A stretch of DNA of 64,000 nucleotides from contig NW_019028982.1 of the NCBI RefSeq assembly GCF_002105155.1, positions 992,001 through 1,056,000 of the forward strand. The letters run 5' to 3'. Numbering within the stretch: the first letter of the stretch is position 1; each line of letters opens with the position of its first letter. Below are positions 9,876-32,795 of this stretch, piece after piece. The translations under genes and the position numbers were made by a program. Source of the stretch: Lobosporangium transversale. Taxonomy: Eukaryota. A model generated the notes under the pieces. It worked only from the letters and a program-made list of their open reading frames with translations. It was not told the origin of the DNA and made no database searches.

Positions 9876-10813
9876 AGATCTACAGTATACAGATCTCGAT
9901 TAGGCTTGATCGCTATCCCTCCCGAACTGATGTGCGCTTTTTTGGCACATGCCTAAAACCTCTATGGCCTCTCCAGACGGATATGGCTTATCCTGGTAGA
10001 GAGAGAGGACCGTAGTTTCAGCCTGGTAGATGCATGTACTAACTACCAGAGGAATAAAATATGCAAGGTTCACAGTCTCTAATTGAATGCATTGCCTCAG
10101 ACTCTGATCCAGCTGGGTTCGTTGCTAGAAACAATCTAGTGGTACTAGATGAGGATAGCACACAAACTTCTTACTAATGATATCCCTCTACGTAAAGCAT
10201 GAGATGAATATTCAAGGCAAAGGTTCCATCGGATGCCATCGTATCGATTTTATAGCTTCAAGTGTGAACAACATGCTTTGATCGAGTATCCCAAATGGAT
10301 AAAGTAGCTTCGCCTGTTTGGTAATATGATACATGAGTACACAGTCTTTCCGTCAACCATCTCACATATACGCATCACTGCAGCTTCATAGAACCAAATG
10401 TTGAGAAAATTTATATTTTTGTTATGGCAGCAAGATTTCTTTGATTGAGTGTCCCACAAATTCATTGCTTCGTCGATTTAATTCCCTGATCGCGTATCTC
10501 AAAAGCTTAATTCTACTATAAACTCACTTTCCCCACACGAATAAAGAAAAGGAACAGGAATGTATGCTTTTGTATAGCTTACCTGCGTGCCCCTATTCAA
10601 TCATTTCTTAAAAAATAGTTAAAAGGCCATTGTAAGGGTGTTGTAGAATCTAATCTCCATTGAAAGAGCCTTTCAAATTGTTACTGCAACTGTTTTTTTT
10701 TTATATATATAATAGCAGGTCCTCTCTCACCTTTTTTCTCTTCTTTTCTTCACACACAATACAACACTCCAAACAAAAACAGCTCACCAGATCTCTACTA
10801 CCTATCCAACATC

Positions 10814-11125
10814 ATGAAGTTCTCCACCACTGCTGTCCTTTCCATGGCTGTTGCCGCCTTGGTTATGTTCGCTCCCAACTCAGTTGGTAAGATCCTTACA
10901 ATTATCTATGTGCATGTCTGTTTTTGAGTTTGCGTGCTGCATTTATGCACTGTTCAAGTATATTAAACACTTCATCTCGTTATATCGCATCTATCTGTTT
11001 AATTGGCTGATCTAGATGCATCTTGTCGAGATGACTGCCTCATATCCTTAAATCTCTGTCTCGGGTCCCATCCTAAACCTTACTGCAATAGTTTACTCAA
11101 CTTGTGCTTGCTCGGCTGCAAGTGA
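10814..11125 (+). CDS. Small secreted cysteine-rich peptide precursor, copy 1 (60 aa)
   Basis: Exons 10814-10886 and 11016-11125, GTAAGA...TAG intron. MKFSTTAVLSMAVAALVMFAPNSVDA / SCRDDCLISLNLCLGSHPKPYCNSLLNLCLLGCK*. Signal peptide ends V-D-A; TATA-like run at ~10702. Confidence 0.88.
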
Positions 11126-12116
11126 TAGTAAAGATGTTGAAAGCAAAAATACGCATTATGAGCTACTCTTCTCATCATTAGGAAGTTCAATACTAAACGA
11201 TGTGAGAGGTGTAAATAAATAAAAAGATATTTTGGCTTAACTTTGCAATATGACACATTCATTGAGCCTCTTATAAGAGGTACTGTACATAATAATGGGC
11301 GTAACCAACGCCAAAGTGCAAAGTAGCTGCTCGCCTATAGCATATTACAACCCTTTTAGAGACCCTATATGACCCTTTAGACGAATAGCTTAGTAAAATC
11401 ATCGTTGCAGTAGATAGAAGTGAGAGTGAAAGTGAGGGAGTATTTGACAGGCACAGCATATTGAGACTGAAAGCAGCAGCGTTAGATTTGAGAATGCATT
11501 ACTGCATGAAGCAGCTTGTTCTTGATGTTTTGGTCTCCACAAAGCTTGACTAAGAGTGTGATTTGGTTCGGCTTCTAACATAGTAGATCGAAGGTCCTGA
11601 TCTGCTCTTGTTAGTGTCCTATATGCATCCTTCAAAGAAGGCGGACACAATGCAGTGGAAACAATAGGCTCTTGCCACTGAGCAGTGTCTGTGATATGCA
11701 TGGTATAGACAACTGAAGTCAAAGCTTGACGAAGCCTTTACTTTACTTATTTCTCTTTAATAGAATGAAATGGCAAGCGCCACCAAGCTTGGAGTTTGGG
11801 TAGGGCTACATCTACGCTTCAACAGAGGATGTTCTCTTTGTTCCCTTGAAGCACCGTTAGGATGTATTCAACACAATGATTCAAGGATAGAAACACATTA
11901 GCGAGAACGCGCGAGCAGCGATGCCCTTGCAAATATGGGTGTGCAGTTGTAGCAATGATATGCACTACATCATATTATAACTGTCTGTTCTGTTGTAAAG
12001 CTGCTTTATTGTACTTTTGTGCATGCTACTTCCCTATTTCAAGTCCTACTCCACTTTTTTGTTCTTTTCTACAGCTTCGACGGAGGACTCAATGCTGGAT
12101 CCAAATGTCATTAATA

Positions 12117-12434
12117 TCAATGACAGCAGGTCAAACATTAAGCGCATTGGATTAGGGCAATTGTACACCAACAATGCATTCCTCGAAGAGTCATAAAAGG
12201 CTATTTCCCGACCTGATCGATAGCCTTTGCAAGGCCAACTACATAAAATGCATCGAACAGAGCAAATGGCAGGTAAAGAGTGCTTAGCATACTTGAACAG
12301 TATACAAATGCAACATACACAAACACAAGTATAAACATGCACATGGATGGGCGTGAAAGCCTTACCTGCTACCGTAGGAGTGAACATAGCCAAGAAGGCA
12401 ACATGAAAAAGATAAAGATGCTTGAGAGCCTCAT
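12117..12434 (-). pseudogene. Pseudogenised paralogue of the secreted-peptide family with a different Cys pattern
   Basis: acatcATG start; exon 1 12434-12366 is 69 nt versus 73 nt in the intact genes (4-nt deletion in MRLSSIFIFF..VAFLAMFTPTVA); 127-nt phase-1 intron alignable to the intact intron; exon 2 VGLAKAIDQVGK*PFMTLRGMHCWCTIALIQCA*CLTCCH*. Confidence 0.75.
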
Positions 12435-12737
12435 GATGTGGAATGGATGGTAGAATTCTGAGAAGTCTTTATAAAAGAACAGAAAATAAAGGAATATACA
12501 ACCTGGAGATAAAAAGCGCCTTATACATATGTATTGATGCTTGCATCTCTGAGCTCTTTAGAGTGGAGGATTGCTTAACGGATCATCTCCCATGATTCAT
12601 CATCCATACTCTTACAGATTATCCCAGTTGTGCCGGAGACTAGAGATACCCATCAAATATAGGGCAGGAAGCTCTTGTTCTGATGAGAATACAATAAGGT
12701 TTTGGTATGCGCTGCCGGAAATAGTCGTGGTGACTAT

Positions 12738-30107: not shown

Positions 30108-30296
30108 ATACAAGGCTGGGTCTCCTTTGATTTTGGATCGGGGACACTTCGCGTTTTAGGTTATGGAGTTCAGCTACCGTGGATATTGTACACGCCTCGA
30201 TTCTGTGATATTCCACCTCAAGAGATCGAATGCGGAGTTGAATCGTCAAAAGCTACAGGCTGAGCCAATAGTTCTCTATTCGTTTCACTTGAGCCT

Positions 30297-30568
30297 TATG
30301 TTCACTCCTACGGTAGCAGGTAAGGCTTTCACGCCCATCCATGTGCATGTTTATACTTGTGTTTGTGTATGTTGCATTTGTATACTGTTCAAGTATGCTA
30401 AGCACTCTTTACCTGCCATTTGCTCTGTTCGATGCATTTTATGTAGTTGGCCTTGCAAAGGCTATCGATCAGGTCGGGAAATAGCCTTTTATGACTCTTC
30501 GAGGAATGCATTGTTGGTGTACAATTGCCCTAATCCAATGCGCTTAATGTTTGACCTGCTGTCATTGA
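30297..30568 (+). pseudogene. 5'-truncated mirror copy of the secreted-peptide pseudogene
   Basis: Starts at the arm boundary inside exon 1; same intron and exon 2 as the minus-strand copy at 27906-28223. Confidence 0.7.
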
Positions 30569-31559
30569 TATTAATGACATTTGGATCCAGCATTGAGTCC
30601 TCCGTCGAAGCTGTAGAAAAGAACAAAAAAGTGGAGTAGGACTTGAAATAGGGAAGTAGCATGCACAAAAGTACAATAAAGCAGCTTTACAACAGAACAG
30701 ACAGTTATAATATGATGTAGTGCATATCATTGCTACAACTGCACACCCATATTTGCAAGGGCATCGCTGCTCGCGCGTTCTCGCTAATGTGTTTCTATCC
30801 TTGAATCATTGTGTTGAATACATCCTAACGGTGCTTCAAGGGAACAAAGAGAACATCCTCTGTTGAAGCGTAGATGTAGCCCTACCCAAACTCCAAGCTT
30901 GGTGGCGCTTGCCATTTCATTCTATTAAAGAGAAATAAGTAAAGTAAAGGCTTCGTCAAGCTTTGACTTCAGTTGTCTATACCATGCATATCACAGACAC
31001 TGCTCAGTGGCAAGAGCCTATTGTTTCCACTGCATTGTGTCCGCCTTCTTTGAAGGATGCATATAGGACACTAACAAGAGCAGATCAGGACCTTCGATCT
31101 ACTATGTTAGAAGCCGAACCAAATCACACTCTTAGTCAAGCTTTGTGGAGACCAAAACATCAAGAACAAGCTGCTTCATGCAGTAATGCATTCTCAAATC
31201 TAACGCTGCTGCTTTCAGTCTCAATATGCTGTGCCTGTCAAATACTCCCTCACTTTCACTCTCACTTCTATCTACTGCAACGATGATTTTACTAAGCTAT
31301 TCGTCTAAAGGGTCATATAGGGTCTCTAAAAGGGTTGTAATATGCTATAGGCGAGCAGCTACTTTGCACTTTGGCGTTGGTTACGCCCATTATTATGTAC
31401 AGTACCTCTTATAAGAGGCTCAATGAATGTGTCATATTGCAAAGTTAAGCCAAAATATCTTTTTATTTATTTACAACTCTTACATCGTTCAGTATTGAAC
31501 TTCCTAATGATGAGAAGAGTAGCTCATAATGCGTATTTTTGCTTTCAACATCTTTACTA

Positions 31560-31871
31560 TCACTGGCAGCCGAGCAAGCACAAGTTGAGTAAATTATTGC
31601 AGAAAGGTTTAGGGTGGGACCCGAGACAGAGATTTAAGGATATGAGGCAGTCATCTCGACAAGATGCATCTAGATCAGCCAATTAAACAGATAGATGCAA
31701 TATAACAAGATGAAGTGTTTAATATACTTGAACAGTGCATAAATGCAGCACGCAAACTCAAAAACAGACATGCACATAGATAATTGTAAGGATCTTACCA
31801 ACTGAGTTGGGAGCGAACATAACCAAGGCGGCAACAGCCATGGAAAGGACAGCAGTGGTGGAGAACTTCAT
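31560..31871 (-). CDS. Small secreted cysteine-rich peptide precursor, copy 4 (60 aa)
   Basis: Same exon 1 as the others; mature SCRDDCLISLNLCLGSHPKPFCNNLLNLCLLGCQ. Confidence 0.88.
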
Positions 31872-32795
31872 GATGTTGGATAGGTAGTAGAGATCTGGTG
31901 AGCTGTTTTTGTTTGGAGTGTTGTATTGTGTGTGAAGAAAAGAAGAGAAAAAAGGTGAGAGAGGACCTGCTATTATATATATAAAAAAAAAACAGTTGCA
32001 GTAACAATTTGAAAGGCTCTTTCAATGGAGATTAGATTCTACAACACCCTTACAATGGCCTTTTAACTATTTTTTAAGAAATGATTGAATAGGGGCACGC
32101 AGGTAAGCTATACAAAAGCATACATTCCTGTTCCTTTTCTTTATTCGTGTGGGGAAAGTGAGTTTATAGTAGAATTAAGCTTTTGAGATACGCGATCAGG
32201 GAATTAAATCGACGAAGCAATGAATTTGTGGGACACTCAATCAAAGAAATCTTGCTGCCATAACAAAAATATAAATTTTCTCAACATTTGGTTCTATGAA
32301 GCTGCAGTGATGCGTATATGTGAGATGGTTGACGGAAAGACTGTGTACTCATGTATCATATTACCAAACAGGCGAAGCTACTTTATCCATTTGGGATACT
32401 CGATCAAAGCATGTTGTTCACACTTGAAGCTATAAAATCGATACGATGGCATCCGATGGAACCTTTGCCTTGAATATTCATCTCATGCTTTACGTAGAGG
32501 GATATCATTAGTAAGAAGTTTGTGTGCTATCCTCATCTAGTACCACTAGATTGTTTCTAGCAACGAACCCAGCTGGATCAGAGTCTGAGGCAATGCATTC
32601 AATTAGAGACTGTGAACCTTGCATATTTTATTCCTCTGGTAGTTAGTACATGCATCTACCAGGCTGAAACTACGGTCCTCTCTCTCTACCAGGATAAGCC
32701 ATATCCGTCTGGAGAGGCCATAGAGGTTTTAGGCATGTGCCAAAAAAGCGCACATCAGTTCGGGAGGGATAGCGATCAAGCCTAATCGAGATCTT

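Follow-up and report, generated by a model that had tools for sequence, protein, structure and literature searches.

A nested palindrome carrying four copies of a small cysteine-rich peptide gene in the fungus Lobosporangium transversale

Described palindromes and the locus in Lobosporangium

Most work on conversion between palindrome arms concerns the sex chromosomes of animals and plants, which are very large; ampliconic palindromes of the Y/W type are described as inverted arms longer than 10 kb and more than 99% identical around a spacer (10.1101/800185). Here we report on a palindrome of 22,904 bp in the fungus Lobosporangium transversale, which holds two smaller palindromes and four intact copies of a small gene for a predicted secreted peptide; it lies in a stretch of 64,000 nucleotides (the window; NCBI RefSeq assembly GCF_002105155.1, contig NW_019028982.1, positions 992,001 to 1,056,000 of the forward strand), to which all coordinates refer. 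According to the passages cited here and below, the arms of human Y palindrome P1 themselves hold the smaller palindromes P1.1 and P1.2 (PMC5816366, PMC8600007), and P6 combines conversion with rare inversion (PMC3723533). W.P1 and W.P2 of the willow Salix purpurea comprise four arms with four copies of key genes, a depth of 4N, long terminal repeat (LTR) elements and conversion (PMC7023750). The pheromone genes of the Cryptococcus mating-type locus (MAT) are inverted, in up to four copies, and intra-allelic conversion has been proposed for them by analogy with the Y (PMC12510652); palindromic gene duplicates, again with conversion proposed, are reported in Folsomia candida and Adineta vaga (PMC5490193). 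In yeast, template switching couples arm homogenisation to spacer inversion (PMC8604942), and inverted copy-number variants with widened spacers are on record in fungi, through origin-dependent inverted-repeat amplification (ODIRA; PMC10766186) and as inverted triplications in Aspergillus flavus (10.1101/2025.01.14.632981).

Self-BLAST and global alignments bore out the geometry of the original prediction, an annotation made from the letters of the window that had placed two palindromes of about 6 kb within one of 22.9 kb. The outer palindrome pairs exactly from 9891<->32794 to 20694<->21990. Its left arm (9891..20694, + strand) ends inside ORF1 of a gypsy element and is likely the derived copy, and its right arm (21990..32794, - strand) is likely the parental one; the central spacer of 1,295 bp (20695..21989) consists of 65 bp of other sequence plus the gypsy 5' LTR and leader. 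The inner palindromes (10431-16467 and 26217-32254) each measure about 6.04 kb, of which a single arm takes up only some 1.96 kb: A1 (10431..12388, + strand) and A2 (14508..16467, - strand) on the left, A3 (26217..28177, + strand) and A4 (30297..32254, - strand) on the right. Both inner spacers (12389..14507 and 28178..30296, + strand) are 2,119 bp long, carry the 5' end of a peptide pseudogene (B) and a degenerate terminal inverted repeat (TIR) element, and are identical; in the assembly they stand in direct orientation, i.e., one is flipped relative to a mirror image.

With inverted arms of 10.8 kb that are more than 99% identical on either side of a spacer, the locus has the dimensions of a Y/W-type palindrome. 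It shares with human P1 and P6 the nesting, the arm identity above 99% and, probably, kilobase conversion tracts, and the flip of its spacer as assembled may be a counterpart of the spacer inversion by intrachromatid crossover described there. It is about 130 times smaller than P1, is fungal, has one small-peptide gene as its cargo and has inner arms that are old and only partly homogenised. Palindromes of the Y/W type lie in non-recombining, sex-limited regions; the flanks here hold a Kar9-like gene and ordinary housekeeping genes. The willow W resembles it in its four arms, four gene copies, 4N depth, internal LTR elements and gene conversion, and differs in having 20-kb arms, a plant sex-chromosome setting, two consecutive palindromes and several genes per arm. 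The Cryptococcus genes are likewise fungal small-peptide genes in up to four copies that act as inverted repeats; they encode mating pheromones, their conversion is hypothetical and the cited passages describe no nested long arms, whereas the peptide here has a signal-like N-terminus and six cysteines. The Folsomia and Adineta duplicates are also palindromic and outside sex chromosomes, but they comprise collinear blocks of several genes whose Ks values vary widely, and nesting is not described in the passages concerned. The suggestion in the original prediction that such nesting had not been described is not supported, given the P1 and willow examples. A search of open PMC and bioRxiv text returned no nested gene-bearing palindrome in a fungus, and we regard the locus as a small, clean example of a known architecture that is new for fungi as far as our literature searches reach. 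With 59 marker columns among its four arms, a nested palindrome of 23 kb in a fungus that can be cultured would offer direct measurements of conversion tracts, of how often flips occur and of selection acting against conversion.

Copy number and the patchwork of the arms

Eight public runs were listed, all as assembled contigs with no library type on record; contigs of X1, X2, X3 and X7 were compared over 2600-22500, and those of X1, X3, X7 and X8 over 30240-33030. In the three DNA runs (X1, X2, X3), the depth of flank, outer arm and inner arm stood at about 1:2:4 (X1: 6-10, then 19.3 and 23.5, then 42.7; X2: 6.9-8.9, 18.1 and 39.9; X3: 99.8-101.5, 250.9, then 460.9 and 467.9), so that the left outer arm has about twice and A1 about four times the single-copy depth, as the original prediction had anticipated for the inner arms and for the gypsy body. 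De-mixed with contigs that cross a boundary, the outer-arm depth came to 216 and 231 in X3 and to 20.9 and 13.0 in X2. The depth of the inner and central spacers is masked by repeat families. Where the arms differ, the depth of the alleles also followed the assembly: A-type and B-type forms of the peptide gene's exon 2 were present at 2:2 (21.4 vs 20.9 in X1; 201 vs 244 in X3), and a cluster of sites private to A2 stood at 10.4 vs 27.8 in X1, which is the 1:3 that the assembly predicts and that neither a plain mirror nor a plain flip would give. Both the A1 and the A4 form of 11071/11082 occurred in X2.

Contigs of X2 and X3 bridge the left boundary at 9891 and the novel central junction at 20694/5, and at 9891, 20694 and 32794 the contigs of X1 stop precisely; the third outer junction, on the right, was without a bridging contig among the contigs shown, as was the spacer orientation, and a multi-copy miniature inverted-repeat transposable element (MITE) starts 2 bp from that boundary. 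Two of the three outer junctions are thus spanned by contigs. A fold-back or collapsed-haplotype artefact predicts single-copy depth and is rejected, because the depth is about 1:2:4 with alleles at 2:2 and 1:3 and because the central junction is found in two runs. The palindrome is real, multi-copy genomic DNA.

The arms were, as described earlier, nearly identical with clustered differences. Between the outer arms there are none in the distal 540 bp and none in the 4,227 bp of the gypsy part; all 16 differences in the roughly 8.7 kb outside the inner spacers fall in the inner arms, in two clusters (7 at 14745-14897 and 9 at 10978-11209). Alignment of the four inner arms gave 59 variable columns, 43 of which separate A1 and A4 from A2 and A3; the others single out A2 (7), A4 (5) or A1 (4). 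Region by region, the variable sites number 26/273 (distal promoter), 0/223, 5/89, 16/110 (exon 2), 3/872, 7/152 and 0/239. A1 is of A type, A2 is of B type with its 7 private proximal sites, A3 is B-type in its distal and A-type in its proximal part, and A4 is an A-type arm with a mosaic around exon 2. At the divergence of unconverted sequence, finding 0 differences in 223 positions (at 9.5%) has a probability of P = 2e-10, and the 872-bp tract one of P = 2e-33; without conversion, near-identical tracts of 223 and 872 bp could not persist in an old duplication whose copies are about 10% diverged.

This four-arm patchwork, with 0/223 and 3/872 beside 26/273 and with mosaic arms, likely reflects arm-to-arm gene conversion together with a spacer flip, as in Y palindromes, in line with the analogy first proposed. 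The sites private to A1 and A4 near exon 2 can be accounted for if B-type arms donated another two or three tracts and a single point change or patch was added; an outside donor or a consensus error could stand in for one such tract.

The peptide genes and their product

Each inner arm carries one intact two-exon gene with a 73-nt exon 1, a 129-nt phase-1 intron and a cysteine-rich exon 2: copy 1 (10814..11125, + strand; 60 aa; exon 1 at 10814-10886, intron at 10887-11015), copy 2 (15770..16084, - strand; 61 aa, B type), copy 3 (26600..26914, + strand; 61 aa, identical to copy 2) and copy 4 (31560..31871, - strand; 60 aa). Together they encode three versions of the peptide. The A-type copies 1 and 4 differ from each other at 3 residues (two of these differences are seen in short-read contigs and the last is not), and from the B type, which has one extra codon, at 7 and 8 residues, respectively. 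The only coding indel between the types is one of 3 nt, and frame, six cysteines and the cysteine spacing 3-6-8-6-3 are kept in all copies. The first 24 residues are hydrophobic and by inspection signal-like, from which secretion is predicted. In X7, a run that is likely RNA, a contig of B type, matching copy 2, is joined exactly at the predicted intron at a depth of 1532 (flanking-gene contig: 476), indicating that the gene is transcribed and spliced; this contig speaks to splicing, not to expression level. In X8, C>T changes are seen at 85 places of the stretch 31671-32272, with the CpG positions 31751 and 31814 among them, and the + strand of the stretch contains 86 C in total; X8 looks like a bisulfite library, a type we infer from this pattern, in which gene and promoter are unmethylated.

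That these four copies are the only intact host genes in the palindrome, as originally claimed, agreed with our domain scans: Pfam searches of 21 and 43 frames, in which the left unit and the gypsy element were sampled, matched only gypsy domains inside the palindrome, and an Rfam scan gave 0 matches. Everything else in the amplified block is unassigned DNA or belongs to the dead gypsy element, a MITE or the degenerate TIR element. An open reading frame of 100 aa (11399-11701) is present in every inner arm; it has no Pfam match and no cover in X7 and is likely spurious or a remnant.

From a single sequence, AlphaFold2 predicted a two-helix hairpin (helices 3-16 and 21-33) with a predicted local distance difference test score (pLDDT) of 93.9, and from the symmetry of the cysteines we predict nested disulfides (C1-C6, C2-C5, C3-C4). 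The predicted helices (11018-11122) contain an internal repeat, C-x6-C with the same four final residues in both, which suggests that one module was duplicated in tandem to form the hairpin. Plant alpha-hairpinins, whose motifs are CX3CX4-20CX3C (4C) and CX3CX3CX4-20CX3CX3C (6C; PMC11591084), are similarly short, cysteine-rich helix-loop-helix peptides with CX3C at both ends; the present peptide is fungal, its helices are predicted, no sequence similarity to them was found, and its spacing of 3-6-8-6-3 fits neither motif. A signal peptide and antimicrobial or protease-inhibitor activity are further hallmarks of alpha-hairpinins.

A search of open PMC and bioRxiv text for the peptide returned no description. 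It appears to be an unannotated orphan and is a candidate for a new class of fungal disulfide-stapled hairpin. Fungal lipopeptide mating pheromones end in a C-terminal CAAX box; here there is none, as one residue and then the stop follow the last cysteine, and we rejected that assignment. As for its role, defence against microbes or grazers is our leading prediction, though falling somewhat short of an even chance; a function as signal or pheromone and some other role are each much less likely, on a par with one another, and a surface or structural role is a little less likely again.

Origin, maintenance and surrounding sequence

Our preferred reading, which we hold to be slightly better than an even bet, is that two inverted duplications gave rise to the four-armed nested palindrome, that arm-to-arm conversion followed, and that the gain was one of dosage of a predicted secreted defence peptide, with reshuffling as a passive consequence. 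In a first step, an old inverted duplication within a small peptide-gene cluster, with its break inside paralogue B, would have produced two copies in convergent orientation, whose unconverted parts now differ by about 10%. Later, a block of 10.8 kb that included a dead gypsy element would have been copied in reverse beside itself, by template switching or while a break made by a transposon was being repaired. Of the two copies, the right one probably served as parent, because paralogue C and a gypsy element complete from LTR to LTR are found only there. In a third step, tracts starting in long identical stretches would have overwritten most of the inner arms, a process that the observed pattern supports, and a single event may have overwritten the proximal portion of A3 while inverting its spacer, either by conversion with crossover or by a two-switch template jump. 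Such a single event after a young outer duplication would explain the A2-only cluster together with the flipped spacer. It resembles the yeast template switch, in which one two-switch event likewise yields a converted arm and a flipped spacer, as in A3; the arms there measure 10-16 bp. The product would be a disulfide-stapled, leucine-rich helical hairpin. The primary product of ODIRA, a triplication with two fold-back junctions (PMC10766186), does not match the two outer-unit copies, single fold-back junction and 1.3-kb spacer of this locus; a secondarily eroded triplication is a possible origin.

Purifying selection is modestly supported, as the reading frame and six cysteines persist in both old lineages while paralogues B and C died. 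Several points weigh against the preferred reading. The four intact copies represent two independent lineages only, so that the evidence for selection on dosage is modest. The peptide had neither a homologue nor a significant fold match in our sequence and fold searches, its net charge is small (0 to +3) and its helical amphipathicity low, none of which favours a defence role; moreover, the identification of X7 as RNA is a guess, and expression is poorly measured by contig depth. With regard to copy number, one de-mixed outer-arm value in X2 is only about 1.5 times the flank (13.0 vs 8.9), the inner arms reach 4.3-7 times the adjoining flank contigs, somewhat above 4, and X1, X2 and X3, although taken from three studies with one sample each, could all represent a single strain, and the source itself could be among them. 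Short-read contigs cannot phase the spacer, and four of the five A4-only alleles (31476, 31481, 31490, 31565) show the majority letter in the X1 and X3 rows displayed, which points to a popped bubble or else to an error in the consensus. Finally, the comparison includes neither outgroup nor second strain, which leaves the direction of conversion and the ages unpolarised.

A less probable but serious alternative is that the structure, although real, is a neutral by-product of transposon-driven breakage in a gene-poor, repeat-rich interval, with passive conversion and with an exon 2 island that survives since heterology and the 3-nt indel stop tracts. Both outer breakpoints touch transposon-related features (a MITE at 2 bp and a footprint-like motif at 3 bp), a near-identical Tc1 family with intact transposases is present in the window, a second divergence island lies in non-coding DNA, and the selection tests are non-significant. 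Against it, the peptide gene is the only intact gene in the amplified block, both old copies retained frame and cysteines over about 10% divergence as paralogues B and C decayed, and a contig of high depth from a likely RNA run shows the gene in spliced form.

The original prediction went further and saw in the palindrome a structure that amplifies and reshuffles a diversifying peptide. Amplification to four copies is seen and reshuffling is likely, but the tests do not establish diversification: exon 2 is not significantly more diverged than the unconverted promoter (16/110 vs 26/273, p = 0.20), non-synonymous and synonymous changes between A4 and B do not differ significantly in proportion (11/82 vs 2/23; dN/dS by Fisher test, p = 0.73), and a divergence island would fall on exon 2 under random placement with P 0.08-0.19. 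We consider it unlikely that this is a miniature Y-style nested palindrome of an early-diverging fungus acting as a diversity generator for a new family of secreted helical-hairpin defence peptides, which would flip and convert in vegetative nuclei, with two mature-peptide types kept apart by selection and new mosaics drawn from the arms and from dispersed paralogues. More doubtful still is the view that selection holds the two types apart against conversion while the palindrome makes mosaic mature peptides. Exon 2 does form a divergence island with converted tracts on both sides, as in opsins, where this pattern is taken as a signature in the passage cited (PMC3924837); of the changes between A4 and B, 11 are non-synonymous and 2 synonymous, the mosaic A4 arm encodes a peptide of its own, and loose contig ends and single-copy joints point to paralogues elsewhere as possible donors. 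The three tests above and the identity of copies 2 and 3 tell against it. We rank dosage amplification with passive reshuffling above these readings, with purifying selection modestly supported and the tests for diversifying selection non-significant.

Least probable of all is a partial mis-assembly with correct copy number and a wrong spacer orientation, A4-only alleles or unit arrangement, for which speak the unbridged orientation and right junction in the contigs shown, the four of five A4-only sites unseen and a perfect Tc1 palindrome of 1.34 kb with a 30-bp spacer elsewhere in the window that could be a fold-back, and against which stand allele depths of 1:3 and 2:2 that match the assembled arms, bridged left and central junctions and three runs that contradict the single-copy depth an artefact predicts.

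The family context of the peptide genes was absent from the original prediction. Pseudogene B (12205..12434, - strand) is a paralogue with a frameshifted exon 1, which the inner breakpoint cuts, and a short exon 2; the start of a second copy is at 28223, A2 and A4 contain copies truncated at the 5' end, and the form in the window is present in loose contig ends of X1 and X3. Pseudogene C (34681..35050, + strand), 1.9 kb beyond the right boundary, is 84% identical over promoter, untranslated region and signal exon, has no splice donor and appears in X7 as unspliced low-depth contigs. Loose ends and single-copy joints in X1-X3 contigs at 31817, 31876, 12313->16030 and 16089->16186 indicate at least two more peptide paralogues elsewhere in the genome.

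The dead Ty3/Gypsy element is complete from LTR to LTR at 20760..26136 (+ strand), with a frameshifted reverse transcriptase and an RNase H split by a MITE at 25410-25560, and has a truncated mirror at 16548-20694. No integrase match and no target-site duplication were found over 20760-26136; its LTRs differ by 4 substitutions and 1 indel, which, with no target-site duplication, suggests earlier recombination between elements. The degenerate TIR element of the inner spacer (about 12741-14316) is multi-copy and has no Pfam match; a motif alone suggests that it is piggyBac-like. The end of the left flank (9754-9873) is a degenerate copy of the right end of this family.

At the right boundary, where an X1 contig ends exactly at 32794, lies the MITE at 32796..32988, with terminal inverted repeats, TA ends and multi-copy depth. 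Three bp from the left boundary is a TA-CAG-TA motif (9881..9887, + strand) that agrees with the terminal sequence of the Tc1 family in the window and presumably resembles a Tc1 excision footprint; about 6 occurrences per such motif are expected per window, which we put at roughly a 0.4% chance within 10 bp of a given point, in a test that is post hoc. Given these two features, transposon breakage may have triggered the outer duplication. A Tc1/mariner copy with a stop codon (33045..34384, - strand) lies 250 bp beyond the right boundary.

In the flanks, a frame of 870 aa has 38 homologues, one of them at 88% identity; all the named ones are from Mortierellaceae (45-61% identity), several being called karyogamy protein, and the host is a fungus of that family. 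ALO, Rce1-like and KIN17 genes are among those to the right. MITEs of high-copy families occur at 7515-7884, 17124-17274, 25410-25560 and 32796-32988, three distinct sequences in four places. At 52812-55521, two inverted Tc1/mariner copies, 100% identical over 1,343 bp around a 30-bp spacer, reflect either a local hop or a fold-back artefact, and both encode an intact transposase of 337 aa.

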